Below are positions 4,919 through 49,123 of a stretch of 64,000 nt of DNA, piece after piece. The translations under genes were made by a program, and so were the position numbers. Under the pieces are notes generated by a model. That model was given only the letters and a program-made list of their open reading frames with translations, made no database searches and was not told the DNA's origin. Location: positions 17,956-81,955 of the forward strand of contig CAIRFN010000005.1 in NCBI GenBank assembly GCA_903877885.1, written 5' to 3'. Every line of letters begins with the position of its first letter. The stretch's first letter is position 1. This DNA comes from an uncultured Candidatus Berkelbacteria bacterium (GTDB lineage Bacteria; Patescibacteriota; UBA1384; UBA12157).

Positions 4919-5139
4919 CTTTTAAATTATTTAAAAATTTACCGGCTCGAAAAAAGTTGATGGTTATTTCCAATTTCTTCTTGATTGGCATTTCACGGTA
5001 AATTTTATTTTGCATCTCTTGAACTTTGTTCATTTGATTTTAGTATAGCATAAAATTATAACCAAAAAGAACAGCCTTGCGACTGTTCTTTTAATATCTA
5101 TGATAGATTGCTTCGCCTGAGGGCTCGCAATGACTATTT

Positions 5140-7236
5140 TTATTCTACATCTTTCATACTTAAACTAACTCTACCTTTTTCTCGGTCGACTTCGACGACT
5201 TTGACTTTAACAATGTCGCCGACTTTAACCTTATCAGAAACTTTTTCAATTCTTTCGTTGGCAATTTGAGAAATATGAACCATACCGTCTTTGTTTGGCA
5301 GAATTTGCACAATAGCGCCAATCTCATTGCCGCGCATGCGGTCTTTCAAAATCTGAACGACTGGACCTTCAAAAACTTCACCGACTTTTGGTTCGCGCAT
5401 ACTGCCGGCAATAATTTCTTCGGCTTTTTTGGCCGCAGCCGCATCAGTCGAGGAAATCATGACCAAACCATCATCTTCGATATCGATGGAAATAATTTCA
5501 CCGCCGCCGCAATCTTCAATAATCTTGCGAATATTTTTGCCGCCTGGGCCGATTAATTCACCAATCTTTTCTGGTTCAATGCGAAGTGATGTAATTCGTG
5601 GCGCGTATGGTGATAGTTCCGCTCGAGGTTCGGCAATAACTTTTTCGATTTTAGCTAAAATAAAGTTAATACCTTCGCGAGCCTGAAGAGTCGCCTCTTC
5701 GAGCCATTCGACAGACAAACCTTTAAGTTTGGTGTCCATTTGACAGGCTGTAATACCATTTTTGGTTCCGGTTAATTTATAATCCATGTCGCCAGCAAAA
5801 TCTTCCAAACCTTGAATATCAGTCAAAACTTTATGTTTATCGCCTAATGTCATCAAACCCATAGCAATACCAGCCACTGGCGACTTAATCGGCACACCCG
5901 CATCCATCAAAGCCAAGGTTGAACCGCAAGTTGAAGCCATCGAGCTTGAACCGTTGGAGGCCAAAACTTCAGATACAACCCGAATCGTATATGGGAAATC
6001 TTCTTTAGACGGAATCACGGCAATCAAAGCTCGTTCGGCTAAAGCGCCATGACCAATTTCTCGGCGAGAAGTCCCGCGAATCGGTTTAACTTCGCCGGTA
6101 GAAAATGGTGGGAAATTATAGTGATGCATGTAGCGCTTAGTGCCTTCTTCTTCCATGGTTTCGATTGTTTGTTCTTCACCAGGAGCACCCAAAGTAACAA
6201 TACTCATAACCTGCGTTTGACCACGAGTAAATAAACCGGTGCCATGAGTTCGTGGCAACAAGCCAATTTCAATATCAATCGGACGAATTTCGTCTAATTT
6301 ACGGCCGTCAGGACGAATGCCTTTATCAACAATAGCGTGACGAACTTCTTTTTCCAATAAATCGGACAGAGTAGTTTTCAATTCCGATTGTTTGTAATCA
6401 CCTTCAAAATTTTTCAAAATATCAGCTTCAAAAGTCGCAATGTCATCATCGCGTTTGGCTTTGTCCATTTCAATCATCACATTGGCCAATTTGTCGCCCA
6501 AATATTTCTTAACATCAGCCACAATCGCCGCTTCACCTGGATCTTCGGTTGTGTGCTTGGTGTCGGCAATCAATTTCTTTTGAATTTCCAAACCTGGTTG
6601 TAACTCTTTTTGGCCAAATTCAATGGCTTTAATAAAATCGGCTTCGGTAACTTCTTTAGCACCAGCTTCCACCATCATGACCTTATCAGCCACACCGGCA
6701 ACAACTAAATCTAAAGTTGATAATTCCATTTCCGCTTCTGAAGGGTTGGCCACAAATTTGCCATCGATTAAACCAACGCGGACAGCCGAAACCGGGCCTT
6801 CAAAAGGCGCTGGGGTTTGGCTTAATGCCGCGGAGGCGGCAATAATAGCCAGAATGTCGGGATTATTTTCGCCATCATAAGATAAAACGGTGATAATCAC
6901 CTGAACATCATTACGATATTTTTTTGGAAATAGCGGTCGAATCGGTCGGTCAACCAAACGGCAAGTTAAAATTGCGCGTTCTGACGGGCGACCTTCGCGT
7001 TTGATAAATCGGCTGCCGGAAATTTTTCCGGCCGCATACAATCTTTCCTCGTAATCAACGAGTAACGGAAAATATTCCGCATCTTCTTTGGCTTTAGCTG
7101 AAACAACAGCAGTTGCCAAAACCACGGTATCGCCACAGCGAACCGTCACTGAACCAGACGCTAATTGCGCCAATTTACCAGTTTCGATGGACAATTGCTT
7201 GCCACCGAGCATGGTTGTGAAAACTTCACTTTTCAT
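5140..7236 (-). CDS. pnp: Polynucleotide phosphorylase (polyribonucleotide nucleotidyltransferase)
   Basis: 698 aa. Two RNase PH-like domains followed by C-terminal KH and S1 domains (..GPGGKNIRKI.., ..VGEVFEGPVVQILKD..). Confidence 0.95.
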   Translation of the reverse strand: MKSEVFTTMLGGKQLSIETGKLAQLASGSVTVRCGDTVVLATAVVSAKAKEDAEYFPLLVDYEERLYAAGKISGSRFIKREGRPSERAILTCRLVDRPIRPLFPKKYRNDVQVIITVLSYDGENNPDILAIIAASAALSQTPAPFEGPVSAVRVGLIDGKFVANPSEAEMELSTLDLVVAGVADKVMMVEAGAKEVTEADFIKAIEFGQKELQPGLEIQKKLIADTKHTTEDPGEAAIVADVKKYLGDKLANVMIEMDKAKRDDDIATFEADILKNFEGDYKQSELKTTLSDLLEKEVRHAIVDKGIRPDGRKLDEIRPIDIEIGLLPRTHGTGLFTRGQTQVMSIVTLGAPGEEQTIETMEEEGTKRYMHHYNFPPFSTGEVKPIRGTSRREIGHGALAERALIAVIPSKEDFPYTIRVVSEVLASNGSSSMASTCGSTLALMDAGVPIKSPVAGIAMGLMTLGDKHKVLTDIQGLEDFAGDMDYKLTGTKNGITACQMDTKLKGLSVEWLEEATLQAREGINFILAKIEKVIAEPRAELSPYAPRITSLRIEPEKIGELIGPGGKNIRKIIEDCGGGEIISIDIEDDGLVMISSTDAAAAKKAEEIIAGSMREPKVGEVFEGPVVQILKDRMRGNEIGAIVQILPNKDGMVHISQIANERIEKVSDKVKVGDIVKVKVVEVDREKGRVSLSMKDVE

Positions 7237-13145: not shown

Positions 13146-14177
13146 TTAACTCGCTAATTTAAGAACTAATAAGTCGAGGGCCACTTTTGGCTCAACCTGA
13201 CCGGTTTTCATCGCCAAATCGTTTTCCATTAATTCATGGTAGATTTTTTTCAGTTCTATCATATTGTAATTCTTAATTAAATTTAGGCTTTTACCGGCCA
13301 CAAACGGATGCAATCCAGCCCGTTTCGACAGCTCCCACTGCGAATTTACTCCGCGCTCGGCAAAATCCATCGTAATTAACAGGTTCCGATATTGATAAAC
13401 AATCATCGACAAAATATAGAGTTCATTTTCGCCATTATCTAAAAGTCGGTGTAATTCGTATAATGATTTTTTGACGTTTCGACTAGCGACCGCGTCAACC
13501 AGAGCAAAAATATCGCTGGAAGTTTGCGGTTTAACCAAGAGTTCGATATTTTGAACTGTAATAATATTGTCATCCTCGAGCCGGTGTGAGTCTTTATCGA
13601 ACACCGACATCGGGGATCCAGATCCCGGATCCTGAAGCCTTCCGGTCCGGGATGACAGACCTTTAAAAGTTGCAAGTTTGGCAATTTCATTTCCTAACCG
13701 CCACAAATCGGCGCCAACATATTCAAATAATTTTTGAACACCATCAGATGTAATCGTACCATTTAATTTAGCAACTTCTTCGCGAATCCAGGTTTTTGCA
13801 CCTTGTTCATCAAGCGGTTTAAATTCTTGGGTTTTTTGTTTAGCTAATTTTTTGTAAAGCGATGTCCGTTTATCTGGCACGCCTGCTTCAGCAAAAACCA
13901 AAACGGTTGTTTCCGGGACTTTCGGCAAAAATTCGCCGATTTTTTCTTGTTCATCCTTTTTTCCTTCTAACAACAAATTTTCAATAATCACCAGCCGACT
14001 TTTGGCTAAAAATGGATAGGCCAAAATCTGCCGAATCATAAAATCGGCTTTAGTCGTCTTGCCGTCAATCACCGCTAAATTTGTGTCCCCTAAAGACGCG
14101 GAAATATACTTTTCCTTCATCTCTTTAATTTTTTGTTTTAGTCTGTAAGTATCCTCGCCAAAAAGAAATAATATCAT
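13146..14177 (-). CDS. holA: DNA polymerase III delta subunit-like (HolA)
   Basis: 343 aa. N-terminus MILFLFGEDTYRLKQKIKEMKEKY and overall delta-subunit layout. It carries an in-frame family-A element at 13568-13657. Confidence 0.65.
   Translation of the reverse strand: MILFLFGEDTYRLKQKIKEMKEKYISASLGDTNLAVIDGKTTKADFMIRQILAYPFLAKSRLVIIENLLLEGKKDEQEKIGEFLPKVPETTVLVFAEAGVPDKRTSLYKKLAKQKTQEFKPLDEQGAKTWIREEVAKLNGTITSDGVQKLFEYVGADLWRLGNEIAKLATFKGLSSRTGRLQDPGSGSPMSVFDKDSHRLEDDNIITVQNIELLVKPQTSSDIFALVDAVASRNVKKSLYELHRLLDNGENELYILSMIVYQYRNLLITMDFAERGVNSQWELSKRAGLHPFVAGKSLNLIKNYNMIELKKIYHELMENDLAMKTGQVEPKVALDLLVLKLAS
13568..13657. repeat. Family-A MITE-like palindromic element (tgtcatcctcgag...gggatgaca) inserted in frame in holA
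   Basis: Termini tgtcatcctcgagccgg.. and ..ccggtccgggatgaca. Translated through as ..RLQDPGSGSPMSVFDKDSHRLEDDN.. Confidence 0.8.
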
Positions 14178-15831: not shown

Positions 15832-16803
15832 TTAAAACAAGCTCAACCGATTATCTTCCCTATTAGATTTATGAATTCTGGGAATTAAGGATTTAAACCC
15901 GAGGTCTAAAAAGAGTTTTTCCACTTTTTCCTTATCAAAATCGTGAATTTTGGCATCTGATAATTTAAACTCGATCGGCGCATCTGAAACAATTTGTGAC
16001 AATTTTTGGCTTAAATATGCTTGATCTTTGTACTCAATTAATAAGGAAAGAACTTTTTTGGAAATTTTTAACTTTTCTGATAGTTTTTGAATTTTGTCAT
16101 CCTGAGCTTGCGAAGGAACTTTTTTAGATTCTTCACTACCGTTCAGAATGACATTATATAAATTATCAAGTGTTTGAAATTTCTCGATTAGATTGCTGGC
16201 CGTTTTTTCACCTATTCCTGGAACTCCGGGAATATTGTCCGAAGAGTCGCCTTTGAGCGCCTTTAGGTCAACAAATTGACTTGGATTAACATTATACCGC
16301 TCTTTGACTTTATTCTCATCGTACATGACCGCTTGCTGGACACCGCGCGCCATCGAATAAACCTTTGTACTCTGATCAATCAGCTGAAAAGTATCCGAGT
16401 CACCTGTCACAATAATGTTTTCAATTCCACTATCTTCTATCCCCTTTATTATCGTTGCGGCAATATCTTCGCCTTCATATCCTTCGGCCGAAACAATCGG
16501 AATATTCATGGTCTCCAACACTTTTTTGCAATATTGAATTTGCGGCACCAAATCATCAGGCATCGGTTTGCGCGTCGCTTTGTAATCAACATATTCCAAG
16601 TGCCGTTTGGTTGGTTTGGGTAAATCAAAACAAGCCACCAAGTATTCAGGTTGGAGTTCTTTAATGGCAGCAAGTAAAGCCGAGGCAAAACCATAGGCCG
16701 CGTTAATCGGATGACCATCGCGCGTCAAAGTCGGCGGAATACCATAGAATGCCCTAAAAATTAAAGCAAACGAATCAATTAAAACCAAACGATTTTTTAT
16801 CAT
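15832..16803 (-). CDS. 5'-3' exonuclease (Pol I N-terminal-type / FEN-like)
   Basis: 323 aa. N-terminus MIKNRLVLIDSFALIFRAFYGIP with the acidic metal-binding clusters typical of 5'-nuclease domains. It carries an in-frame family-B element. Confidence 0.85.
   Translation of the reverse strand: MIKNRLVLIDSFALIFRAFYGIPPTLTRDGHPINAAYGFASALLAAIKELQPEYLVACFDLPKPTKRHLEYVDYKATRKPMPDDLVPQIQYCKKVLETMNIPIVSAEGYEGEDIAATIIKGIEDSGIENIIVTGDSDTFQLIDQSTKVYSMARGVQQAVMYDENKVKERYNVNPSQFVDLKALKGDSSDNIPGVPGIGEKTASNLIEKFQTLDNLYNVILNGSEESKKVPSQAQDDKIQKLSEKLKISKKVLSLLIEYKDQAYLSQKLSQIVSDAPIEFKLSDAKIHDFDKEKVEKLFLDLGFKSLIPRIHKSNREDNRLSLF
16095..16153. repeat. Family-B palindromic element (tgtcatcctgagc...gttcagaatgaca) in frame in the 5'-exonuclease gene
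   Basis: tgtcatcctgagcttgcgaaggaacttttttagattcttcactaccgttcagaatgaca. Translated as ..PSQAQDDKIQ.. Confidence 0.8.
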
Positions 16804-19258: not shown

Positions 19259-20217
19259 TTCCTTCTCATCTTCTCGATAAACTTAAATAAATTATACCAG
19301 CATTTGCTGTAAATAATATCCCAACTTCCGACTGTTTGGTATTTGATGCCGCCAAATTGCTCTTTAAATTGAGTGATACCGGCGTATTTATGTTTTTTGT
19401 CATTCTGAGCTTGCGAAGAATCTATAGATCCTTCACTGCGTTCAGGATGACTATTAAATGGCGCTACTGCTAATAAATCATAAAACTTGCAACCTTTGGC
19501 TTTGGCGATTTTAATCGCCTCCCAGTGCATTAGGTATGGTGCCATTACATTGCGATATTTTGATAAGCTTGCTCCATAAAGATAAGTCGCCATTTCGTCA
19601 AAAAAAGTAAAAATTCCAGCCGCCACGGGAATATCATTATATTTAACAACCAAAAGTTCAACGGAATTTATTTCTTTTAAGGTTTGAATTAATTTAGCAA
19701 AATATTTTTTTGGTCTGATTTGAAAACCATCTCGGCTAGCCGTTTCCTTAAAAATTTCGTAAAATTCGTCAATATTTTGTGATTTTTCAACAACTAAACC
19801 ATGTTTTTGCCCTACTTTAATATTATATCGGCCTTTTGGTTTCATTTTGGCCAAAATTTCTTCTTCAGATTTTGTTATATCCACAATTTGACGATATTCT
19901 GGCTGAATCTCTTCAAACGATTTAATGAGATGATTTTTCTTCAAAATTGTTGTAATTTTTCCACCAAAAACCGAGTTTTTTTGATTCAAAAAATCTAACC
20001 TTAAAAATATCGAGTGGGATTTTTTAGAAATTTCTTTAATTTTTGGTAAAAATTTGGGGAAATTGATTTTGTAAAAATCGACTTCCGGCGAGTACAGAAA
20101 ACTAAAACCCAGTGGTAATGGTTTTTCCAAAACTAAAACCTCATCAACCCAATGGGCTTTCCAACCTTGACTTTCGCGAAGCGCAGCCCATTCCTTTGTT
20201 TGTAGAATTGATTTCAT
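19255..20217 (-). CDS. FemAB-family peptidoglycan interpeptide aminoacyltransferase (FemX-like)
   Basis: 320 aa. N-terminus MKSILQTKEWAALRESQGW and overall Fem-family layout. It overlaps murE by 4 nt. It carries an in-frame family-B element. Confidence 0.65.
   Translation of the reverse strand: MKSILQTKEWAALRESQGWKAHWVDEVLVLEKPLPLGFSFLYSPEVDFYKINFPKFLPKIKEISKKSHSIFLRLDFLNQKNSVFGGKITTILKKNHLIKSFEEIQPEYRQIVDITKSEEEILAKMKPKGRYNIKVGQKHGLVVEKSQNIDEFYEIFKETASRDGFQIRPKKYFAKLIQTLKEINSVELLVVKYNDIPVAAGIFTFFDEMATYLYGASLSKYRNVMAPYLMHWEAIKIAKAKGCKFYDLLAVAPFNSHPERSEGSIDSSQAQNDKKHKYAGITQFKEQFGGIKYQTVGSWDIIYSKCWYNLFKFIEKMRRK
19398..19452. repeat. Family-B palindromic element in frame in the femX-like gene
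   Basis: tgtcattctgagcttgcgaagaatctatagatccttcactgcgttcaggatgac. Translated as ..HPERSEGSIDSSQAQND.. Confidence 0.8.
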
Positions 20218-20246: not shown

Positions 20247-21482
20247 ATGATGAAAGAAAAAATGAAAATATTAGCCATTGAATCAAGTTGTGACGAAACC
20301 GCGGCCGCCGTTATTGAAAATAATAACGGTGAGATTAAGATACATTCAAACATAATTTCTAGTCAAATTGATATTCACAAACAATTTGGTGGCGTTTTTC
20401 CCGAAATTGCTTCGCGTGCTCATGCCGAAAATATTATTCCGGTGATTAAAGAATCTTTAATTAATAGTATTGATGATGTCGATCTAATCGCTGTCACTGA
20501 CGGACCAGGTTTAATCGGTTCGCTTTTGGTTGGCGTCAATGTAGCCAAAACCTTGAGTTTCGCAAATAATATTCCGATCTTACCAATCAACCACTGGCTT
20601 GGTCATATCTATTCCTGTTTTACCGATGATAAAAATTTACCTCGATTCCCTCTTCTCGCCCTTATTGTTTCCGGTGGTCATACTGGTTTGGTGTTGATGA
20701 AAAGTCATACCGAGTACATTCAAATCGGCGCTACACTTGATGACGCCGCTGGCGAAGCTTTTGATAAAGTAGCAAAACTCTTAGAATTAGGTTATCCTGG
20801 CGGACCGGCGATTTCAGCTGCGGCTGAAGAATATAAAAAAGAATGTCATTCCGGTCCAGATGGTAATACTGGAACCGGAATCCAGGCCTGGATTCCCGAT
20901 GTCGAGTTGCCACTCGGCTCGAGAATGACAATTTCCTTTCCGAGAGCCATGCTTAATTCTAAAGATTATAATTTAATGTCAATTAAATTTCCGCGGGCCA
21001 TGATGCAATCAGGGAACTATAATTTCTCATTTTCAGGGTTAAAAACTTCTGTACTAAACAAAGTTCGAACTTTAACTGAAAATTGGAAATTGAGAACTGA
21101 AAATTTTGCCCCCGTAGTTGCCTATGAATTTCAACAATGCGTCATTGATATTTTAATTGGTAAAACTTTGAAAGCGGCTGAAGAATTTAAGCCAAAATCA
21201 ATTCTTCTTTGCGGCGGCGTTTCAGCAAATAAGGAATTAAGAGAACAAATGAAAAAAGCTATTTTGTCATTCCGGACCCCTCCTGTCATTCCGGACCGGT
21301 TGGCAACAGGATCCGGAATCCAGGAAAAAACGAATGACAAGATTAATTTTTTCTGTCCGCCCATCGAATTAACCGGCGATAACGCGGCCATGATCGGTAT
21401 TGCCGCAGCCTATCAAATCAACGCTGGCGTTAAACCAACTACATATAATAATGTAAATGCGAACTCAAATTTGAAATTGTAA
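20247..21482 (+). CDS. tsaD: tRNA N6-adenosine threonylcarbamoyltransferase TsaD (Kae1/Gcp family)
   Basis: (M)KILAIESSCDETAAAVIEN.. N-terminus with the His metal site. At 411 aa it is longer than typical, because of two in-frame element insertions plus a 17-codon tandem duplication. An alternative start exists at the ATG at 20262. Confidence 0.9.
   Translation: MMKEKMKILAIESSCDETAAAVIENNNGEIKIHSNIISSQIDIHKQFGGVFPEIASRAHAENIIPVIKESLINSIDDVDLIAVTDGPGLIGSLLVGVNVAKTLSFANNIPILPINHWLGHIYSCFTDDKNLPRFPLLALIVSGGHTGLVLMKSHTEYIQIGATLDDAAGEAFDKVAKLLELGYPGGPAISAAAEEYKKECHSGPDGNTGTGIQAWIPDVELPLGSRMTISFPRAMLNSKDYNLMSIKFPRAMMQSGNYNFSFSGLKTSVLNKVRTLTENWKLRTENFAPVVAYEFQQCVIDILIGKTLKAAEEFKPKSILLCGGVSANKELREQMKKAILSFRTPPVIPDRLATGSGIQEKTNDKINFFCPPIELTGDNAAMIGIAAAYQINAGVKPTTYNNVNANSNLKL
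20844..20930. repeat. Family-A MITE-like element in frame in tsaD (copy 1)
   Basis: tgtcattccggtccagatggtaatactggaaccggaatccag gc ctggattcccgatgtcgagttgccactcggctcgagaatgaca. Translated as ..CHSGPDGNTGTGIQAWIPDVELPLGSRMT.. Confidence 0.8.
21263..21340. repeat. Family-A MITE-like element in frame in tsaD (copy 2, with a duplicated left terminus)
   Basis: ttgtcattccggacccctcc tgtcattccggaccggttggcaacaggatccggaatccag gaaaaaacgaatgacaa. Translated as ..ILSFRTPPVIPDRLATGSGIQEKTNDK.. Confidence 0.75.
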
Positions 21483-21888: not shown

Positions 21889-24039
21889 ATGCAAGAATTA
21901 CCATCAAATTACAATTATAAAGAAACTGAAGACAAAATTTATGCGCTGTGGGAAGAAGCCGGCGCGTTTAAACCAGTTATTGATCCTAATCAAAAACCAT
22001 ATACGATTGTGATTCCGCCACCAAATGTGACTGGTTCTCTTCATATGGGTCATGCTTTAAATAACACAATTCAAGATATTTTAATTCGTCGCTCTCGGAT
22101 GCGTGGCGTGCCAACTCTATGGATTCCCGGAACTGATCATGCCGGTATTGCTACTCAAAATGTGGTGGAAAAAAAGTTGGCTAAAGAAGGCAAAACTCGT
22201 CAAGAACTTGGGCGCGAAGAGTTCACCAAAGAAGTTTGGGATTGGGTTGATCAATATGGCAACACTATTATTGGACAGCTCAAGAAAATGGGTTGTTCTT
22301 GCGATTGGTCCAGACAGCGTTTTACCATGGATGAAGGCTATTCAGAAGCGGTTAAAGTCGCGTTCAAAAATTACTATGATAAGGGTTATATTTATCAAGG
22401 TGAACGAGTGATCAACTGGTGTACCCGTTGTCAAACTGCCTTATCTGATATCGAAGTCGAACATATTGATCAAAACGCTAAACTATATTTTTTTAAATAT
22501 GATAAAAATTTTCCGATCACCATTGCCACTACGCGACCAGAGACAAAGCTTGGCGATACAGGTGTAGCGGTCAATCCGAAAGACAAAAGATATCAGGATT
22601 ACATTGGTAAAACTTTCAAGGTTAATTTTTGCGGTGTCGACCGCGAGATTCGGGTTTTTGCTGACATTAGTATTGATATAACCTTTGGCACTGGCGCCGT
22701 CGGAGTCACTCCAGCGCATTCTTTGGTTGACTATGAAATGGCCGAAAAAAATGGCTTGGATATTATTAAAGTGATTGATCAATATGGGAAAATGACCAAA
22801 GAAGCGGGAACAGAATTTGAAGGTTTGAAAGCAACTGAAGCGCAAGCCAAAGTCATCGAAATGTTGGAAAAAGCTGGGCTGATGGAAAAAGTGGAAGAAA
22901 TCCAAAACGCGATCAGTGTGTGTTATCGCTGTAATCGACCGATTGAGCCTCAACCGTCAAAACAATGGTTTTTAAAGATGTCGGAATTAGCAAAACCAGC
23001 GATTGAAGCGGTTAAATCTGGTCAAATTAAATTCACACCAGACCGTTGGACCAAAGTTTATTTAGACTGGATGGAAAATTTGCGCGACTGGTGCATTTCT
23101 CGCCAAATCTGGTGGGGGCACACCATTCCAATTGAAGGCGAAACTGATGTTTTGGACACTTGGTTTTCGTCAGCCTTGTGGCCGTTTGCCACACTTGGTT
23201 GGCCCAATAAAACTGAAGACCTAAAATATTTTTATCCGACCACCACACTTTCCACTGCCCGCGATATTATTTATCTGTGGGTGGCACGAATGATTTTTTC
23301 AGGGCTTGAATTTACCAACGAAATTCCATTTTCACAGGTTTATATTCATCCAACGGTTTTCAATAAAGAAGGTAAACGCATGTCCAAATCTTTGGGCACC
23401 GGCGTCGATCCTTTGGAACTGATCGAGAAATACGGTGCCGATGCCACGCGATTTGGTCTTACCTATATTAATACCGGGATTCAAGATTTGAAATTTGACG
23501 AAGAAGCTATTGGTGCTGGCAAAAAATTTGCCAATAAGTTGTGGAATATCACCAGATTCATGTTGATGAGCATTTGTCATTCCGGTCCGGATGGCTCCGG
23601 AACCGGAATCCAGGAAAATGATAATCTGGATTCCAGATCAGGTTGCCAACCAGTCTGGAATGACAAGATGGAACCAAGAACTGAAGCCGATAAAATCATT
23701 CTTGAAAAACTTAATGCCGTTATTAAATCAACTGACAAAAATCTTGATGAATTTAAATTTGGCCAAGCGGCGCATGATTTGTATGATTTCGTCTGGCACG
23801 ATTTGGCCGACGTATATATAGAAGAAAGCAAAGTGACCGCGAACGGTCATCCCGAGCCGAAGTCCGGCGAGGGAACCCCTGATTTTTCAGTATTACTTTA
23901 TGTAATAGTAACTTCGATTAAACTTTTGCACCCGATTATGCCGTTTGTAACAGAAGAAATCTGGCAAAAACTCTACGAAGATAAATTAGTTGATGAAAGA
24001 ATGCTGATTACGGCAAAATGGCCAAAAGCACAAGAATAG
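21889..24039 (+). CDS. valS: Valyl-tRNA synthetase (compact form)
   Basis: PPPNVTGSLHMGHAL HIGH region, KMSKS (GKRMSKSLG) and anticodon-binding region. Carries an in-frame family-A element at 23575-23665. Confidence 0.9.
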   Translation: MQELPSNYNYKETEDKIYALWEEAGAFKPVIDPNQKPYTIVIPPPNVTGSLHMGHALNNTIQDILIRRSRMRGVPTLWIPGTDHAGIATQNVVEKKLAKEGKTRQELGREEFTKEVWDWVDQYGNTIIGQLKKMGCSCDWSRQRFTMDEGYSEAVKVAFKNYYDKGYIYQGERVINWCTRCQTALSDIEVEHIDQNAKLYFFKYDKNFPITIATTRPETKLGDTGVAVNPKDKRYQDYIGKTFKVNFCGVDREIRVFADISIDITFGTGAVGVTPAHSLVDYEMAEKNGLDIIKVIDQYGKMTKEAGTEFEGLKATEAQAKVIEMLEKAGLMEKVEEIQNAISVCYRCNRPIEPQPSKQWFLKMSELAKPAIEAVKSGQIKFTPDRWTKVYLDWMENLRDWCISRQIWWGHTIPIEGETDVLDTWFSSALWPFATLGWPNKTEDLKYFYPTTTLSTARDIIYLWVARMIFSGLEFTNEIPFSQVYIHPTVFNKEGKRMSKSLGTGVDPLELIEKYGADATRFGLTYINTGIQDLKFDEEAIGAGKKFANKLWNITRFMLMSICHSGPDGSGTGIQENDNLDSRSGCQPVWNDKMEPRTEADKIILEKLNAVIKSTDKNLDEFKFGQAAHDLYDFVWHDLADVYIEESKVTANGHPEPKSGEGTPDFSVLLYVIVTSIKLLHPIMPFVTEEIWQKLYEDKLVDERMLITAKWPKAQE
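23575..23665. repeat. Family-A MITE-like element in frame in valS
   Basis: tgtcattccggtccggatggctccggaaccggaatccag...ctggattccagatcaggttgccaaccagtctggaatgaca. Translated as ..CHSGPDGSGTGIQENDNLDSRSGCQPVWNDK.. Confidence 0.8.
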
Positions 24040-24074: not shown

Positions 24075-24451
24075 TGTCATTCCAGACCGGCCGGAGGCAG
24101 GATCTGGAATCCAGAATAAAATGAATAATTATTATGTGTATATTTTGACTAGCAGAAGAAACGGCACTTTATATATTGGCGTAACTAATGATCTGATTAA
24201 AAGAATATGGGAACATAAAAACCATAGTAAAAAAGGATTTACAGAAAAATATAACATTTGCCAATTGATATACTTTGAGCAAACTAATAATATAAACTCC
24301 GCTATTAATAGAGAAAAACAATTAAAATCATGGAATAGAAAATGGAAACTTGACTTAATTGAGAAAGTCAATCCTGATTGGAAAGATTTATATCAAGAAT
24401 TGTTGTAACTGGATTCCCGATGTCGGATGCCATCCGACTCGAGAATGACAA
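24075..24451 (+). mobile_element. Full-length family-A element carrying a GIY-YIG nuclease ORF between its two terminal modules
   Basis: Left module tgtcattccagaccggccggaggcaggatctggaatccag (24075-24114). ORF 24121-24408. Right module ctggattcccgatgtcggatgccatccgactcgagaatgaca (24410-24451). The short MITE copies (e.g. 38811-38904) are these two modules joined directly. Confidence 0.75.
24121..24408 (+). CDS. GIY-YIG nuclease family protein (UPF0213/YhbQ-like, about 95 aa)
   Basis: ..YYVYILTSRRNGTLYIGVTNDLIKRIWEHKN.. with the GIY...YIG motifs. The start is trimmed to the ATG at 24121. The track frame is open from 24061 through the left terminal module. Confidence 0.85.
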   Translation: MNNYYVYILTSRRNGTLYIGVTNDLIKRIWEHKNHSKKGFTEKYNICQLIYFEQTNNINSAINREKQLKSWNRKWKLDLIEKVNPDWKDLYQELL

Positions 24452-41669: not shown

Positions 41670-42413
41670 ATGAATATTTCTTTAGCTGCCGAAAAAATAA
41701 TTGAATTTGGACCCGTTGCTATTACCAACACCATGCTGGTCACTTGGGTAGCAGTGGTGCTTTTAATAACATTATCGTATTTTGCCACCAAGCATATGAC
41801 CAAAGTTCCAGGTAAATTACAAAACTTTTTTGAGTTTGTAGTCGAAGCCTTATTAAATTTGATTGATAATATTACTCAAGATCGCAAACAAAGCTTGAGA
41901 TTTTTACCACTTGTGGCCACCATTTTTCTGTTTATTATCACCTGCAATTGGATGGGTTTAATTCCCGGTTTTGAAACGATTGGCCGTTGGACAGTCGAAA
42001 ATGGCCATCAAGTCTTGGTACCATTTTTACGTTCACCGGCATCGGACTTAAATACCACCATTGCTCTAGCGCTTATTGCCATGGTTTCGGTTCAAATTAT
42101 CGGTATCAGTAGCGTTGGCTTTTTCCGTTACATTAAAAAATTTGTTAACTTCAAAGGCCCGATTGAATTTTTTGTCGGCGTCGTTGAAAGCATTTCCGAA
42201 TTTGCTAAAGTCATTTCCTTTAGTTTTCGTTTATTTGGCAATGTTTTCGCCGGCGGCGTTTTATTAGCAGTCGTTTCCAGCCTATTACCACTTATCGTTC
42301 CGATTCCTTTTTATGGCATGGAACTGTTTGTCGGTTTCATTCAAGCTTTGGTTTTTGCCATGTTAACCACTGTATTTTTACAGATGGCAACTGTTGCTCA
42401 CGACGAACACTAA
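41670..42413 (+). CDS. atpB: F0F1 ATP synthase subunit a
   Basis: 247 aa and polytopic. Conserved C-terminal region ..FRLFGNVFAGGVLL.. with the essential Arg. Confidence 0.9.
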   Translation: MNISLAAEKIIEFGPVAITNTMLVTWVAVVLLITLSYFATKHMTKVPGKLQNFFEFVVEALLNLIDNITQDRKQSLRFLPLVATIFLFIITCNWMGLIPGFETIGRWTVENGHQVLVPFLRSPASDLNTTIALALIAMVSVQIIGISSVGFFRYIKKFVNFKGPIEFFVGVVESISEFAKVISFSFRLFGNVFAGGVLLAVVSSLLPLIVPIPFYGMELFVGFIQALVFAMLTTVFLQMATVAHDEH

Positions 42414-42425
42414 ATTTTAAATTAA

Positions 42426-42677
<252 letters not shown>

Positions 42678-42739
42678 ACCCAGACACGCAGCAAGAAAAA
42701 ACTTGCTGTTGCTTGAGTTTAATAATATCGGAGGTTATT

Positions 42740-43222
42740 TTGGAAGCACTTGGTATTGATGGAAAACTTTTACTTGGTCAGATAGTCAATTTTTTGATTC
42801 TTTTTGGCGCGCTCGGATATTTCTTATATAAACCAGTGGTAAAAATGTTGACTGATCGCCAAAACACCATTGCCGATTCTTTGGAAAACGCCAAAAAAAT
42901 TGAAGAAAACTTGGCTAAATCAGAAGCCAAAACTAAAGCAGCTTTGGAATTAGCTCAAAGCGAAGCCCGAAAAGTGCTGGAAGAAGCAATTAAATTAGCT
43001 TCTGATCAGAAAAACAAAATCCTAGCCGAAGCCCAAACCCAATCAGATCGAATTATTGCCAGCGCCAAAGCCGAAGCCAAACAAGCCAAAGATGATGTTG
43101 TGGCTGACGCCAAAAAAGAATTGTCTTCTGTGGTTTTGGCCGCGTTGGATAAAATTATTGGTCATGATATTGATGAAACCACCAAAGAAAAATTAACCAA
43201 GAATGCAATTGAAGAAATCTAA
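42740..43222 (+). CDS. atpF: F0F1 ATP synthase subunit b
   Basis: N-terminal TM followed by a long charged helix. TTG start at 42740 after GGAGG. The track opens at an upstream TTG at 42713. Confidence 0.8.
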   Translation: MEALGIDGKLLLGQIVNFLILFGALGYFLYKPVVKMLTDRQNTIADSLENAKKIEENLAKSEAKTKAALELAQSEARKVLEEAIKLASDQKNKILAEAQTQSDRIIASAKAEAKQAKDDVVADAKKELSSVVLAALDKIIGHDIDETTKEKLTKNAIEEI

Positions 43223-43605
43223 TGAAAATTTCTCCTAATAATTTTGCGAACGCTTTAATCGATTCTGCAGAGCCCGATAATCTTAAAATTATTGCTCGTA
43301 ATTTTTGGTACAAATTGCAAAAAAATAAACAATACAAAGATTTTGCAAAAGTTTTGGACGCGATTGATCTTGAATCAGCAAAAATTCAAAACAAAATTTT
43401 AGCGAAAATTTATTCAAAAAATGAATTAACCGATCAAGATAAGCAAACCATTAATGAAAAATTAGAAAAAAAGTTTCAAAAAGCAATTGTTTTGAAAAAT
43501 ATTATTGGCAAGAATATCACGGGTATAATTATCAAGATTGATGATAAAATAATTGATCTTTCCCTTGAGGGAAAACTCGATAAAATTAAACGGCTTTTTA
43601 ATTAA
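43222..43605 (+). CDS. atpH: F0F1 ATP synthase subunit delta (short form)
   Basis: Position in the operon between b and alpha. 127 aa with an OSCP-like C-terminus (..IIGKNITGIIIKIDDKIIDLSLEGKL..). Start overlaps the atpF stop. Confidence 0.65.
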   Translation: MKISPNNFANALIDSAEPDNLKIIARNFWYKLQKNKQYKDFAKVLDAIDLESAKIQNKILAKIYSKNELTDQDKQTINEKLEKKFQKAIVLKNIIGKNITGIIIKIDDKIIDLSLEGKLDKIKRLFN

Positions 43606-43614
43606 GGAAGTAAA

Positions 43615-45129
43615 ATGAGTAATTACAACATTGTTGAAGAACTAAAAAAAGAGATTATGGATTTTGACACTAACGCCAAAGAAGAATCTGCTGGCGAAGT
43701 AGCCGAAATCGGTGACGGTATTGCTAAAATTTACGGCCTTCGTGATGCCAAAAACGGCGAACTTCTAACCATTCATACTTCCACCTCCGAGGTGGCCGCA
43801 ATGGTTTTAAACCTTGAAGAAACCACTATCGGCGCCATTATTTTGGGCGATTACAAAAAAATTCAAGCTGGTGATAAAGTCAGTACCACCGGAAATGTGG
43901 CTGAAATTCCTGTTTCCGAGGAAATTATCGGTCGTGTCGTTGATCCACTCGGCGTTCCACTTGATGGCAAGGCTGATATCAAAGCTGTTAAATCAATGCC
44001 AATCGAAAAAGTCGCGCCTGGCGTTATTACTCGACTGGGCGTTTCTGTGCCGCTTCAAACCGGTATTAAAGCAATTGATGCTCTGATTCCGATTGGTCGC
44101 GGTCAACGCGAACTCATTATTGGCGATCGCGGCACAGGGAAAACCGCCATCGCCATTGATACTATTATTAACCAAAAAAATCTGCCAAAAGAAAACAGAC
44201 CGATTTGTATTTATGTGGCTATTGGTCAAAAGAAATCCAAAGTTGCCCGCATCGCCGCGATTTTGGAAGAACACGGCGCCATGGAATACACCACCATTGT
44301 TTTGGCCGGCGCTTCAGATCCAGCGCCGCTATCTTACATTGCCCCATATTCTGGTTGCGCTATTGGCGAATATTTTATGGAACAAGGCAAAGATGTTTTG
44401 ATTGTTTTTGATGATTTAACCAAGCACGCTTGGGCTTATCGCCAAGTTTCTTTGTTACTTCGCCGCCCACCAGGTCGCGAAGCTTATCCAGGCGATGTTT
44501 TCTATCTCCACTCTCGATTATTGGAACGCTCTGCTCGTTTAAACAAAGATTTTGGCGGCGGCTCAATGACAGCTTTACCAATCATCGAAACCCAAGCGGG
44601 CGATGTTTCCGCTTATATTCCAACCAATGTTATTTCCATTACCGACGGCCAGATTTTCTTGGAATCCGATCTTTTTTACCAAGGTATTCGACCAGCTTTA
44701 AACATCGGTATATCGGTATCACGTGTCGGCGGCGCCGCTCAAATTAAAGCGATGAAAAAAGTCGCGGGAAAATTAAAATTGGAAATGGCTCAATATCGTG
44801 AACTGGCAGCTTTCGCTCAATTTGCATCAGATTTGGATGCCGATACCAAAAAAACCATTGAGCGTGGCAAACGCATGACCGAGGTGATGAAACAGCCACA
44901 ATATCAACCAATGCCAGTCGAAGAACAAGTGGTGATTTTGTACGCGGTTTCCAACGGTTATTTGGATGGTTATGATGTTACTGAAATTCAAGATATTGCC
45001 AAGGAATTGACCATCAAAGCCCAAAGCGAGGGCAAAGCCATTTTAGCCGAAATCCGCGAAAAATCAGTTATTGACGAAGCCTTAGAAGCCAAACTAAAAT
45101 CGTTTTTAGAAAAAAATACGAAAAAATAA
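43615..45129 (+). CDS. atpA: F0F1 ATP synthase subunit alpha
   Basis: GDRGTGKT Walker A plus the complete conserved alpha-subunit sequence. Confidence 0.95.
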
Positions 45130-45136
45130 TTTTAAA

Positions 45137-45527
45137 TGTCATCCTCGAGCCGGTTTGAGCTTTGTCGAAAACCGACATCAAGGATCCATCAAAATAAAAA
45201 GCTATTTCGTTTACATTTTAGCCAGTCAGAAAAACGGAACATTATATATCGGTGTTACAAATGATATTATAAGAAGGATTTGGGAGCACAAAAATAAAGC
45301 TATTCAAGGTTTTACAGATAAATATAGAATTGATAAATTAGTTTATTTCGAAGAAACACCAGATATTAATTCAGCTATTAAGAGAGAAAAACAATTAAAA
45401 TTATGGAGCCGTTCCTGGAAAATAGATTTGATAGAAAAGAATAATCCTGATTGGAAAGATTTATATCAAGATTTGTTATAATGGATCCTTGATGTTGGAG
45501 CGCTTCGCTTCCAACTCGAGGATGACA
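45137..45527 (+). mobile_element. Second full-length family-A element carrying a GIY-YIG ORF between its terminal modules, inserted between atpA and atpG
   Basis: Left module tgtcatcctcgagccggtttgagctttgtcgaaaaccgacatcaaggatcca. ORF to 45481. Right module tggatccttgatgttggagcgcttcgcttccaactcgaggatgaca. Confidence 0.75.
45155..45481 (+). CDS. GIY-YIG nuclease family protein (second copy)
   Basis: ..YFVYILASQKNGTLYIGVTNDIIRRIWEHKN..REKQLKLWSRSWK.. The frame is open from a TTG inside the left terminal module. There is no ATG near the conserved N-terminus, so the start is uncertain. Confidence 0.75.
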   Translation: MSFVENRHQGSIKIKSYFVYILASQKNGTLYIGVTNDIIRRIWEHKNKAIQGFTDKYRIDKLVYFEETPDINSAIKREKQLKLWSRSWKIDLIEKNNPDWKDLYQDLL

Positions 45528-45548
45528 AAAAAAGATAAAAACTTTAGT

Positions 45549-45611
45549 ATGTCATTCTCGAGCCGAATGGTAATTCGACCTGCCTGACGGCAGGCAGGCA
45601 TCAAGAATCCA
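45549..45611. repeat. Family-A solo module with an embedded 20-nt palindrome (cctgcctgacggcaggcagg)
   Basis: tgtcattctcgagccgaatggtaattcgacctgcctgacggcaggcaggcatcaagaatccaa. Confidence 0.7.
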
Positions 45612-45617
45612 ACTGTA

Positions 45618-45659
45618 TGTCATTCTCGAGTCGGATGGGATCCGACATCAAGAATCCAG
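45618..45659. repeat. Family-A solo module, tandem direct copy
   Basis: tgtcattctcgagtcggatgggatccgacatcaagaatccag. Confidence 0.7.
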
Positions 45660-45712
45660 ATAAATAAAAAAGGCCAATGCGTAAACGCAAAGGCCGAAAT
45701 CCGGTCTTAAAG

Positions 45713-45958
45713 CTACTTTCGGAAAAACATAGCTATCAGACCAACAATTATGCTACCGATATAAGCGATTGGATGTTGTGCAAAACCGAGAGTCAACATC
45801 CATGAAATCGCTCCACTTGCACCGACGGCGGTAGATAGACCAGAATCTGGACCCATAACAGCCAGAAAGAAAAGGAAGCTTAATATCAGAGTTGCGATCA
45901 TCAGTGATGCGTACATTAACGTAGCAACACCAAAGAATCTTCCTATTCGGTAAGTCAT
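45713..45958 (-). CDS. Small hydrophobic membrane protein (81 aa), antisense to and inside the atp operon
   Basis: Intact ORF with 2-3 TM helices. RBS ggagggaacgaaATG on the minus strand. Weak terminator-like hairpin plus a T-run downstream of its stop. Confidence 0.4.
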   Translation of the reverse strand: MTYRIGRFFGVATLMYASLMIATLILSFLFFLAVMGPDSGLSTAVGASGAISWMLTLGFAQHPIAYIGSIIVGLIAMFFRK

Positions 45959-46025
45959 TTCGTTCCCTCCAACAAAAATCTATCAGAAGTATACCATAAT
46001 AAGCATTAAAAGTCAATAGAATATT

Positions 46026-47066
46026 ATGCCAAGTACACAAGAATTTCGTAGAAGAATTAAATCGGTCAGTTCGACCAAACAGATTACCAAAGCAATGGAA
46101 ATGATTGCTTCTATTAAGATGCAAAAATCTGTCAAAACTATTGCCCAGGCTCGAGCCTATATCCAAAACGCATGGAATATTTTACATTTACTGTCTGAAA
46201 AAATATTAAGCGACGATCACGCGCTGATTAATCCTAAAGATCATGCCAAAAAAACAGCCGTGATTTTAATTACTTCTGACCGCGGTTTATGCGGTTCATA
46301 TAATTCAGAAGTGATCAAGAAGCTAACATCATTCAAAAATGTCATCCTCGAGACGGAGGGTACTCCGACATCAAGGATCCAGGACCTGGATTCCAGATCT
46401 GGTTCCCAACCAGTCTGGAATGACAATACGATTGATATCATTGCCATCGGTAAAGTCGGCGCCGCGTTTGTTAACAGATATAAAATCGGCAAACTGATCG
46501 CTGAATTTAAAGGTTTTGAAAATAATATTTCCGTTGAAGATGTCATTCCGATTTCCAAACTGACGAATGGTGAATATATGGCTGGAAATTATGACAAAGT
46601 GGTAGTGATTTATTCTCATTTCATTTCTTCGCTTAAACAAGTCCCGGTCGTCAAACAAATTTTGCCAATTGTCGAAGATCATATCGATCATCCGGAATTA
46701 TGGGAAGGAAATAATGTCATCCTCGAGCCGGAGGGTACTCCGACATCAAGGATCCAGGACCTGGATTCCCGATCCGGAGGCCATCCGGTCGAGAATGACA
46801 AAAACAATACTGAATACAAATTTGAACCCAATCCTGATGAAGTTTTTGATGGCGTCTTGCGACAAATTTTACGCACCCAAATTTTCGGTGCCATTTTAGA
46901 AGCCAACGCTTCTGAACATTCGGCCCGTATGGTGGCCATGAAAAATGCCACCGACAATGCCACCGATTTAGTTGATGAATTAAAATTAGTATATAACAGC
47001 ATCCGCCAAGGAAACATCACTTCGGAAATCGCCGAAATTAGTGGTGCCGCCGAGGCGATGAAATAA
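46026..47066 (+). CDS. atpG: F0F1 ATP synthase subunit gamma (lengthened by two in-frame MITE insertions)
   Basis: Conserved N-terminus (..RRRIKSVSSTKQITKAMEMIASIKMQK..) and C-terminus (..NSIRQGNITSEIAEISGAAEAM). At 346 aa it is longer than typical. Confidence 0.9.
   Translation: MPSTQEFRRRIKSVSSTKQITKAMEMIASIKMQKSVKTIAQARAYIQNAWNILHLLSEKILSDDHALINPKDHAKKTAVILITSDRGLCGSYNSEVIKKLTSFKNVILETEGTPTSRIQDLDSRSGSQPVWNDNTIDIIAIGKVGAAFVNRYKIGKLIAEFKGFENNISVEDVIPISKLTNGEYMAGNYDKVVVIYSHFISSLKQVPVVKQILPIVEDHIDHPELWEGNNVILEPEGTPTSRIQDLDSRSGGHPVENDKNNTEYKFEPNPDEVFDGVLRQILRTQIFGAILEANASEHSARMVAMKNATDNATDLVDELKLVYNSIRQGNITSEIAEISGAAEAMK
46340..46425. repeat. Family-A MITE-like element in frame in atpG (copy 1)
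   Basis: tgtcatcctcgagacggagggtactccgacatcaaggatccag gac ctggattccagatctggttcccaaccagtctggaatgaca. Translated as ..VILETEGTPTSRIQDLDSRSGSQPVWND.. Confidence 0.8.
46715..46800. repeat. Family-A MITE-like element in frame in atpG (copy 2)
   Basis: tgtcatcctcgagccggagggtactccgacatcaaggatccag gac ctggattcccgatccggaggccatccggtcgagaatgaca. Translated as ..VILEPEGTPTSRIQDLDSRSGGHPVEND.. Confidence 0.8.
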
Positions 47067-47077
47067 CAGGAGTATAA

Positions 47078-48500
<1,423 letters not shown>

Positions 48501-48501
48501 G

Positions 48502-48711
48502 ATGCTAAACTTCATAAACAGCTATTGGATTTTAATAATTCCAGTAATTACCTTAATTATTGGTTTGCTATTTCTATCTATTGGCACCAAGAATAACAAT
48601 AAAAATTTAATTATATTTTCAAAAATTATTAGTATTTTTAGTTTTGTTATAATCTGTTATTTAGTATTTGTGACTTTTATGATTTACTTAAGTATGAAAC
48701 CTTTGAATTAA
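48502..48711 (+). CDS. Small hydrophobic protein (69 aa) between atpD and atpC
   Basis: Two predicted TM helices and very AT-rich. Possibly a real small membrane protein or a spurious ORF. Confidence 0.3.
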   Translation: MLNFINSYWILIIPVITLIIGLLFLSIGTKNNNKNLIIFSKIISIFSFVIICYLVFVTFMIYLSMKPLN

Positions 48712-48712
48712 A

Positions 48713-49123
48713 ATGAAAACATTTAATCTAAAATTAATTTCTCCAACTGGTATTAAATACGAAGCCTCGGCAACGGCGGCTTTTTTGCCGACTGCCGAAG
48801 GTACGATTGAAATTTTGCCAGATCACATGCCGCTGATTGCGCTTTTGTCACCCGGAGAAATTATTATTAAAAATAATGCTGAAACTAAAAGTCTTGTCAC
48901 CGATGGCGGCTTAGTGGAGATTGCCGATAACGTGGTTAAGATTTTGGCTGATGAAGCTGAAGAAGCGCATAACCTAGATGAGATGAAAATTTTGGAAGCC
49001 AAAAAAGCGGCTGAAAATCGTTTGGCTAATGCCAAAGACGATGTTGAACATGCCGACGCCGCCGCGCATTTAGAAAAACAATTATCAAAGTTGACGTTCC
49101 TTAAACGTCGTAGACATAAATAA
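48713..49123 (+). CDS. atpC: F0F1 ATP synthase subunit epsilon
   Basis: N-terminal beta-sandwich (..LKLISPTG..ASATAAFLPTAEGTIEILPDHMPLIALL..) plus a C-terminal helical hairpin. Confidence 0.85.
   Translation: MKTFNLKLISPTGIKYEASATAAFLPTAEGTIEILPDHMPLIALLSPGEIIIKNNAETKSLVTDGGLVEIADNVVKILADEAEEAHNLDEMKILEAKKAAENRLANAKDDVEHADAAAHLEKQLSKLTFLKRRRHK

Follow-up and report, generated by a model that had tools for sequence, protein, structure and literature searches.

What separates the alpha and gamma subunit genes of the ATP synthase operon in an uncultured Candidatus Berkelbacteria bacterium, and was that operon split by a mobile element? We analyzed a 64,000-nt stretch of contig CAIRFN010000005.1 (positions 17,956 to 81,955; assembly GCA_903877885.1), referred to here as the window and numbered from its first letter. 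Within it, atpA (F1 alpha; 43615-45129, plus strand; 504 aa; Pfam PF00006, PF00306, and PF02874) and atpG (F1 gamma; 46026-47066, plus strand; 346 aa; PF00231) are separated by 896 bp. An initial annotation, made from the letters of the sequence, had placed the atpA stop at 45129 and the atpG start at 46026; both positions held, and every item that it had listed in the spacer was found where it had been placed. In all likelihood, the spacer consists of a gene for a nuclease of the Ssn family (ssn) together with its hairpins (Ssn-related motifs, SRMs), additional solo SRMs, and an independent antisense unit in a variable slot. The earlier picture of a spacer crowded by a repeat-associated nuclease gene and solo repeats is thus borne out.

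The Ssn family (cd10448) was described in 2025 from Neisseria and reference genomes, with its role elsewhere and the mobility of its repeats left open (Chenal et al., Nat Commun 2025; PMC11893778). The 94-aa GIY-YIG protein SsnA of N. meningitidis binds the NTS hairpin only as single-stranded DNA and does not bind RNA; judged from the reported substrate lengths, it cuts ~3 nt upstream of the hairpin. Tested members of the family do not cut double-stranded DNA. Ssn homologues were reported to be SRM flanked in 71% of cases and on both sides in 42%, and the same paper mentions neither bacteria of the Candidate Phyla Radiation (CPR) nor Rickettsia palindromic elements (RPEs) (PMC11893778).

A GIY-YIG nuclease gene between inverted hairpins

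The gene that follows atpA (ssn copy 1; 45155-45481, plus strand) is a 108-aa open reading frame (ORF) with a GIY-YIG domain (PF01541, E = 1.9e-16) spanning residues 17 to 90. The conserved core measures 93 to 95 aa in both copies of the gene in the window, and the encoded proteins, like the single-domain Ssn proteins of ~94 aa, have no extra DNA-binding domain. Copy 1 retains all of the residues that are invariant in the alignment (Y20, Y31, R41, H45, E78, and N97). Of these, Y20, Y31, and E78 correspond to Y7, Y18, and E65 of copy 2; their spacing of 11 and 47 residues is that of Y6, Y17, and E64, the residues mutated in N. meningitidis SsnA (PMC11893778). Both ssn ORFs are compositional outliers, with a GC content of 26 to 28% (27 to 28% for copy 1) compared to 41 to 47% in the neighboring atp genes.

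Approximately 4,200 homologues of ~95 aa (55 to 88% identity) were found in species genomes of many phyla. At 43/77 homologue loci, the gene was flanked by inverted repeats scoring at least 30 (the shuffle maximum had a median of 20), with arms that read TGTCATTCCCGCGAAAGCGGGAATCCAG, i.e., (T/C)GTCATTCCCGCGAAAGCGGGAATCCAG. The published SRM motif was present within 250 nt at 65% (48/74) of the usable homologue loci and on both sides at 30% (22/74), with an exact NTS at 3/74. Loci carrying the published SRM or NTS encode proteins 55 to 73% identical to those of the window. Because these close homologues carry the published repeats, we place the window gene in the Ssn family. The initial annotation had described a full GIY-YIG element here. 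Such a unit is present at 45155-45481 with inverted modules, although not as a new kind of element: it very probably represents an ssn gene bracketed by its SRMs, in the NTS-ssnA-NTS architecture of the published Ssn/SRM system.

The start of copy 1 is irregular. Its conserved 93-aa core begins near 45200, and there is no ATG at the position usual for the family. The sole in-frame start is a TTG at 45155, which lies inside the left SRM of the gene itself, and the N terminus reads IKIKSYFVYIL compared to MKNYYIYIL in P0121, a homologue with 88% identity. Copy 1 is thus either translated with a 13-aa extension encoded by the hairpin or silent.

We also considered whether the gene encodes a free-standing homing endonuclease of the phage T4 Seg or I-TevI type, which would cut double-stranded DNA at a specific site in cognate genomes and be copied in by repair, with the repeats being incidental. 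Placement between genes of a conserved operon, at sites that vary between relatives, would suit such an enzyme, and the protein weakly resembles the group I intron endonuclease model TIGR01453 (E = 1e-5 to 3e-4). However, this match reaches 21 to 25 bits against a cut-off of 56 and covers only the first 30 to 40 residues. Seg and I-TevI proteins comprise ~200 to 250 aa with a linker and a C-terminal DNA-binding domain, whereas the window proteins consist of 93 to 95 aa and have no such domain. In addition, the repeats are tied to this gene family across phyla, and the observation that tested members leave double-stranded DNA uncut (PMC11893778) does not suit an enzyme of this type. We regard a homing endonuclease as very improbable. 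Among PDB entries, the only meaningful match for the nuclease was the UPF0213 protein 1zg2 (E = 0.004); the top matches of the PDB sequence search were WD40 repeat proteins, which were rejected as spurious, being made up of many sub-threshold stretches.

Enlarged SRM hairpins

The left SRM of the ssn element (45137-45189, plus strand) is composed of a TGTC tag, the lower-stem arm ATCCTCGA, an inner hairpin, the opposite arm TCAAGGAT, and a CCAT tail. The right SRM (45481-45527, minus strand) is inverted, with its tag pointing outward. The DNA fold of the right module has a free energy of -9.5 kcal/mol (z = -3.7); the left module folds weakly alone (z = -0.5). For both ssn copies, the inverted repeats that flank the gene have further copies scattered through the genome. 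In the window, 14 occurrences of the module terminus GTCATYCTCGAG were counted compared to 0.2 expected, a repetition far beyond chance, and a hairpin-aware scan retrieved ~26 modules in the 64 kb, a very high density. These follow the consensus T-GTC, ATYCNNGA, variable inner hairpin, TCNNGRAT, CCAG, or a close variant of it. Modules are 39 to 62 nt long, with an 8-bp lower stem and a structured stretch of 16 to 39 nt between the lower-stem arms.

The 8-bp lower stem is genuine. Its cells are paired in 97.4% of cases, a share that does not exceed 58% once the partner is displaced by one to three columns, and four of the eight pairs show two-sided changes (T-A/C-G, C-G/T-A, C-G/G-C/A-T, and A-T/T-A). 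None of 500 shuffles reached the observed covariation score. The inner stem covaries as well (CGGAG/CTCCG, CGAGT/ACTCG, CGGAT/ATCCG, CGAAT/ATTCG, CGGTTT/AAACCG, CGATTT/AAATCG, and CGGTGT/ACACCG); for instance, the CGGTTT/AAACCG of the left SRM is replaced by CGATTT/AAATCG in the related contig L006 and by CGGTGT/ACACCG in the module at 13569.

The published SRM pattern, HGTCWYN(0-2)YYVSBRHN(0-5)WNVSBRGN(0-2)RNCYNB, retrieved no match in the window and a single match when the loop was allowed to extend up to 45 nt. The window modules keep the tag TGTCAT and the tail ATCCAG, whereas their stem sequence and loop length deviate from the published SRM. Among relatives, contig L010 carries the canonical type with a 4- to 5-nt loop, both around its ssn and inside its atpG, while L006 carries the enlarged type. 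Because the published motif misses the enlarged hairpin, surveys based on this motif would undercount the system. No match to the enlarged module was found in a scan of viral contigs. A further palindromic repeat with GTCATYC termini (TGTCATYCTGAGCTTGCGAAGRA ... GTTCAGRATGACA, ~50 to 57 nt) lies at 16096-16152 and 19399-19448 and may represent another SRM-like family in the same genome.

The hairpins could instead act mainly as RNA, by stabilizing the atpA mRNA or attenuating read-through and thereby setting the alpha-to-gamma ratio (3:1 in the enzyme). Four stable hairpins directly follow atpA on the plus strand, and repetitive extragenic palindromic (REP) elements are established to act in this manner in enterobacterial operons (discussed in PMC3733652). 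Partial attenuation, rather than termination, would also fit a plus strand that has no T-run terminator. Yet the same modules occur inside coding regions and at unrelated intergenic sites, and close relatives have no modules at the atpA-atpG junction. The modules match no Rfam family: a scan of 44900-47200 (E ≤ 1) yielded two chance-level matches only (a Dictyostelium snoRNA and Yersinia YenS), both far below gathering scores. The finding that the N. meningitidis enzyme has no affinity for RNA (PMC11893778) likewise speaks against a role as RNA. We consider this explanation quite unlikely; an RNA effect, if any, would be a side effect of insertion and not the reason for the sequence.

Gene-less dimers and a second ssn copy

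With the composite unit at 21266-21323 counted once, the modules outside the ssn elements comprise nine gene-less head-to-head dimers, with tags outward, and four solo modules. The dimers are 86 to 95 nt long and represent the majority arrangement among modules.

A second ssn element (24076-24451, plus strand) is made up of a short-type SRM, a 95-aa ssn gene starting from an ATG at 24121, and an inverted long-type SRM, with arms at 24076-24114 and 24409-24450. The protein of this copy is 71% identical to that of copy 1, and the two genes lie within 21 kb of each other. Two gene-less dimers resemble the arms of this element: the dimer at 38811-38904 matches them at 36/40 and 41/42 nt, and the dimer at 40184-40278 matches them at 35/40 and 37/42 nt. 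Judged from these matches, the two dimers appear to relate to ssn copy 2 as a miniature inverted-repeat transposable element (MITE) relates to its parent element.

In-frame repeats within essential genes

Long ORFs harbor five of the nine gene-less dimers, and all of these ORFs remain open. The genes concerned are holA, encoding the DNA polymerase III delta subunit (dimer at 13568-13657); tsaD (20844-20930); a class I aminoacyl-tRNA synthetase gene (23575-23665); and atpG, which contains two. Each of these dimers is in frame, as is a partial duplicated SRM unit in tsaD (21265-21324). Spacers are short and stop free in the intragenic dimers, whereas those of intergenic dimers are AT rich and contain stops. 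In the aminoacyl-tRNA synthetase gene, a GC-rich repeat-like stretch (GGTCATCCCGAGCCGAAGTCCGGCGAGGGAAC, 23846-23880) is also found in frame, downstream of the SRM dimer.

In atpG, dimer 1 (46340-46425, plus strand) reads VILETEGTPTSRIQDLDSRSGSQPVWND in frame and dimer 2 (46715-46800, plus strand) reads VILEPEGTPTSRIQDLDSRSGGHPVEND. These were the only two dimers that were folded, and both fold far better than shuffled sequences (z = -4.4 and -4.9, respectively). Each insert amounts to 28 codons; together, the two inserts account for the 346-aa length of the atpG product, which exceeds that of solved gamma subunits by ~60 aa. In an alignment to a solved gamma chain, residues 1 to 102, 134 to 218, and 259 to 344 of the window protein align, while the stretches between them do not; alignments to relatives are likewise interrupted at the two inserts. 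Both dimers fall in loops that are short in solved gamma subunits. Across 18 aligned gamma subunits of the Berkelbacteria type, these same two loops are empty, hold a four-cysteine loop (K-E-E-C-x-C ... T-C-G-x-Y-L-G-x-C), or contain other repeat-derived peptides such as VIPAQAGI or VIASEAKQS. At the position of dimer 1, relatives have either a four-cysteine loop or a short loop. Dimer 2 is shared at the same atpG site with P0003/L006 but not with P0002 and P0004, whose overall similarity is greater. For annotation, the ~60 additional residues of the gamma subunit are best read as repeat derived.

A further rearrangement was seen in the atpG gene of L006, in which the first 32 nt (atgccaagtacacaagaatttagacgaagaat) occur twice (449-529). 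The old start appears intact and the real start shows synonymous differences, with two short palindromes (ttccgcccaaggcggaccagcctagggctggaa) in the ~50 nt between the copies. The duplication has the appearance of an insertion by which a copy of the 5' end of the gene was carried in or regenerated.

The repeats also leave a trace in assemblies. A protein identical to that of atpA is encoded on nine metagenome contigs, and the three of these that were displayed share the downstream layout. Two of the three break off after 357 nt of atpG, precisely where its first repeat lies, which is the signature of an assembly-breaking repeat; the contigs that terminate here are short and come from other samples. 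Breaks of assemblies at SRM repeats should be kept in mind for annotation.

Relation to known repeat systems

Relative to the kind of Ssn system published in 2025, the one described here is new in structure and in taxon, and it stands out most for the in-frame colonization of atpG and other essential genes. The two have in common a GIY-YIG protein with one domain, ~94 aa, and identical Tyr/Tyr/Glu spacing, a gene bracketed by inverted hairpins, and many dispersed genomic copies of these hairpins. In both, the stem begins with AT and is preceded on its 5' side by an unpaired (C/T)GTC tag and followed on its 3' side by a C-containing CCAG tail; the positions of the tag, the stem start, and the CCAG tail have been shown to be important for cleavage and binding (PMC11893778). 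In contrast to the published system, the host is a CPR bacterium (Berkelbacteria, a placement in line with the names of its homologues), the repeats are 39 to 62 nt long with an 8-bp lower stem and a variable second hairpin in place of the 4- to 5-nt loop, and there are two diverged paralogues (71% identity) within 21 kb. Moreover, more than half of the gene-less dimers are intragenic, compared to 2% of the Neisseria NTS (PMC11893778).

A broader relationship is suggested by the superfamily of CGTC/TGTC-tagged REPs, which includes dRS3 of Neisseria and RPE-4 and RPE-6 of Rickettsia and for which no associated enzyme was found (Di Nocera, De Gregorio, and Rocco 2013; PMC3733652). Judged by their sequence, the window hairpins and the homologue arms appear to be such REPs. 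The TGTC tag, the 8-bp stem that opens with AT, and the CCA tail are present in all ~26 modules; most of these are arranged as head-to-head dimers, and some lie within genes. Unlike the members described there, with loops of 4 to 5 nt, the window modules have structured loops of 16 to 39 nt, and the associated gene, here and in the 2025 paper, is ssn. The resemblance to RPEs lies in the in-frame insertion into conserved genes, where the repeats are read in frame as extra peptide loops (atpG, holA, tsaD, and the aminoacyl-tRNA synthetase gene). The host phylum differs, however, and the link to RPEs runs only through the placement of RPE-4 and RPE-6 among the CGTC repeats by Di Nocera and colleagues. 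A literature search for dRS3 together with GIY-YIG led to the Ssn paper (PMC11893778). Searches for GIY-YIG together with REPIN/RAYT, MITE, CPR, REP, or RPE found no prior link, and no paper in the library searched ties RPEs to a GIY-YIG gene.

The arrangement also recalls REPINs and their REP-associated tyrosine transposases (RAYTs), in which inverted doublets and singlets accompany a small gene between inverted repeats and the enzyme acts on single-stranded hairpin DNA. Unlike a RAYT, which is a tyrosine (HUH) transposase of the IS200/IS605 type able to cut and rejoin DNA, the enzyme here is a GIY-YIG hydrolase. The tag is TGTC rather than GTAG, and RAYTs are usually present in a single copy.

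Mobility or host function

If the biochemistry of the Neisseria and Wolbachia Ssn proteins extends to this genome, Ssn would bind the SRM hairpin in DNA that becomes single stranded during replication, repair, or DNA uptake and would nick it ~3 nt 5' of the (T/C)GTC tag. With tags facing outward in both the ssn element and the dimers, the two strands would be nicked at one outer boundary each. These nicks, combined with host repair or recombination, might conceivably spread gene-less dimers, much as RAYTs spread REPINs or parent elements spread MITEs. Inside genes, presumably only copies that keep the frame would survive. The ssn gene itself landed at a junction of the operon where foreign inserts were tolerated already. 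Taken alone, active mobility of the gene-less dimers has, in our judgment, an even to slightly better than even chance. The full reading, that Ssn/SRM in Berkelbacteria is an active REPIN-like mobile system whose dimers colonize essential genes in frame (atpG twice, holA, tsaD, and the aminoacyl-tRNA synthetase gene), is possible and is advanced here tentatively, falling short of probable.

Several points weigh against the overall explanation, from the identification of the ssn gene to the spread of its repeats. Copy 1 has no canonical ATG and may hence be inactive. Membership in the Ssn family is assigned through close homologues that carry the published motif, rather than through direct comparison with SsnA or cd10448, and the window modules do not fit the published search pattern for SRMs. 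No target-site duplications are evident, the modules being merely preceded by T and followed by A, and no pair of empty and filled sites was found at high identity. The Neisseria system, moreover, is described as a restriction-like modulator of transformation and not as a transposon; its NTS-ssnA-NTS layout is insertion sequence-like, with mobility proposed rather than demonstrated (PMC11893778).

The chemistry required for transposition is also wanting, since GIY-YIG nucleases hydrolyze DNA and, to our knowledge, do not rejoin it; nor do we know of any demonstration that SRMs move.

A rival possibility is that Ssn/SRM is a domesticated host function, in which the nuclease cuts incoming or exposed single-stranded DNA near hairpins and modulates recombination around particular genes, with the repeats maintained by the host instead of spreading selfishly. 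This is the sole function of the family that has been shown experimentally (PMC11893778). Identities of 55 to 73% across phyla suggest purifying selection on a cellular function, and the absence of target-site duplications and of a known rejoining chemistry is as expected for such a role. It accounts less readily for the location of 5/9 gene-less dimers inside essential coding sequences, compared to 2% for the Neisseria NTS, or for gene-less dimers that reproduce both arms of an ssn element. The differing placement within the atp operon among relatives and the GC content of the ssn genes (26 to 28%, compared to 41 to 47% in their neighbors) are similarly unaccounted for. Taken together, the intragenic copies, arm-like dimers, variable placement, and GC contrast look like spread rather than functional placement. 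We therefore judge domestication somewhat unlikely as the main explanation, although it and the mobile-element reading are compatible and may coexist.

Should the mobile-element reading be correct, RPEs, the orphan CGTC-tagged REPs, dRS3/NTS of Neisseria, and the CPR repeats would form one superfamily, and the long-missing mobilizing enzyme would be a 94-aa GIY-YIG single-strand nuclease. The hairpin would then be able to gain a second tier while keeping the tag and tail that the enzyme reads. In any case, this locus and its relatives provide natural-history evidence on repeat mobility, in the form of arm-matching dimers and differing ssn placements within one operon, as well as a case of repeated in-frame occupation of surface loops in essential proteins, among them the ATP synthase rotor subunit.

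A probable antisense unit upstream of atpG

The remainder of the spacer is occupied by an orphan minus-strand ORF for a putative membrane protein of 81 aa (45713-45958), with GGAGGG as a Shine-Dalgarno sequence 7 nt from the ATG on its upstream side. Upstream of it lies a promoter-like site (45988-46016, minus strand; TTGACT, 17 nt, TATACT, with TG) that matches at 10/12 positions. This site has the joint top score in the region and is the only 10/12 site with TG. Downstream of the ORF, a hairpin (45672-45695) followed by a T-run (45666-45671) forms a terminator-like structure on the minus strand (-7.3 kcal/mol, z = -2.1), which a simple terminator scan passed over owing to its internal loop. 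The encoded protein is hydrophobic throughout and has two or three segments of helix length. By a codon-usage score trained on the long genes of the window, the log-odds are +0.12 in frame compared to -0.96 and -0.31 out of frame. The antisense gene-like unit claimed between atpA and atpG, consisting of an 81-aa minus-strand ORF with its own terminator, was thus recovered together with a promoter-like site.

It is also conceivable that this ORF is not a gene and that 45665-46025 is a noncoding spacer or remnant left open by chance. Searches of 5.8 billion clustered proteins (word indexed) and 1.8 billion representative proteins (exhaustive HMMER) retrieved only the ORF itself, and it matched no Pfam or NCBIfam family; this weighs against its being a gene, as does a coding score that is only weakly positive. 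On the other hand, the out-of-frame scores and that of an overlapping 137-aa ORF are negative. Chance would also have to supply a GGAGGG, a 10/12 promoter-like site at the right distance, a hairpin and T-run after the stop, and a uniformly hydrophobic product with helix-length segments. Finally, in contig L004 a different antisense ORF of 81 aa is likewise accompanied by a promoter region and a terminator, in the same layout. We find a noncoding spacer unlikely. Because it combines a promoter-like site, a Shine-Dalgarno sequence, a terminator-like hairpin, and a uniformly hydrophobic product, the antisense ORF is probably a real, lineage-specific gene.

Junctions of the atp operon in relatives

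The window contains a complete F1Fo operon on one strand (41670-49123), identified from Pfam matches and ORFs, with genes for subunits a, c, b, delta, alpha, gamma, beta, and epsilon. These follow the canonical atpBEFHAGDC order, with interruptions after alpha and, through a 69-aa ORF, between beta and epsilon. The initial annotation held that the operon had been split by the contents of the spacer, the GIY-YIG element among them, and proposed a synteny comparison. In L004, whose atpG is 78% identical in alignment, the slot (4659-4941) is taken up by an antisense ORF, also of 81 aa, that has a terminator of its own and resembles the window in its upstream region, yet the junction has no ssn or SRM. 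The break is thus not caused by the GIY-YIG element. The L004 protein is unrelated to that of the window and is hydrophilic. Elsewhere, the slot proved variable: it holds an antisense ORF of 109 aa in the P0002 contig and a hydrophobic ORF of 101 aa, on the same strand as the operon, in L010 (3678-3983), and L008 and L009 have no small ORF there. The placement of ssn also differs among relatives, lying between atpG and atpD in L006 and L010. In L009, two antisense ORFs (108 and 113 aa) lie between atpG and atpD (5131-6000). The small slot ORFs of relatives match no Pfam or NCBIfam family.

The atp junctions of related Berkelbacteria thus appear to be a variable slot for lineage-specific small genes. 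Because relatives hold unrelated small ORFs or none in this slot, the operon break is older and more variable than the ssn insertion, which is not needed to explain it. Small "hypothetical" ORFs in the atp spacers of this clade can accordingly be annotated as lineage-specific inserts.

A separate promoter for atpGDC had also been thought to be implied, with "tataccataat" as a candidate. That motif overlaps the minus-strand -10 element, TATACT, of the promoter-like site assigned to the antisense ORF. The sequence does not in itself imply a separate promoter: the stretch from the antisense start codon (45958) to atpG yielded no plus-strand promoter call, and no plus-strand intrinsic terminator was predicted between atpA and atpG. 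Transcription may read through from atpA to atpG. Plus-strand candidates picked by eye were rejected as weak (CATAAT at 45995-46000 has no -35 element, and TAGAAT lies 3 nt before the ATG, which is too near). Besides this promoter region of the antisense ORF, the initial annotation had overlooked the two dimers in atpG and the second GIY-YIG copy.

A small hydrophobic ORF on the operon strand occurs between atpD and atpC both in the window (48502-48711, 69 aa) and in L004 (7474-7662, 62 aa). These ORFs are low in GC (21%) and belong to no known family.

Solo modules and a nested palindrome

Between the ssn element and the antisense unit lie two tandem solo SRMs in the same orientation (45550-45612 and 45618-45659, both plus strand), in agreement with the initial annotation. 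The second folds with a z score of -2.0. The first is interrupted by a 20-nt palindrome, CCTGCCTGACGGCAGGCAGG (45579-45598, plus strand), in which an 8-bp stem encloses a 4-nt loop (CCTGCCTG-ACGG-CAGGCAGG). An L006 module (1543-1584) has the same inner hairpin (GCCGAATGGTAATTCGAC) without these 20 nt, and the palindrome can therefore be read as an insertion into an SRM. With exact copies of the palindrome elsewhere, the earlier suggestion of nested insertion, element within element, is a reasonable one.

The palindrome is single copy in the window, whereas the exact 20-mer was found in more than 120 metagenome contigs with unrelated flanks and a contig GC content of 26 to 69%. By a rough estimate, only a handful of exact 20-mer matches would be expected by chance in a collection of such size. 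A preference of the palindrome for the tips of larger hairpins was considered and rejected, as flanking complementarity of at least 4 bp was present in 5/121 contexts compared to 3.3% of controls and is not enriched. In a few contigs (L106, L108, and L127), a GTCATTG tag is directly followed by the palindrome, which thus resembles the stem of a different type of SRM.

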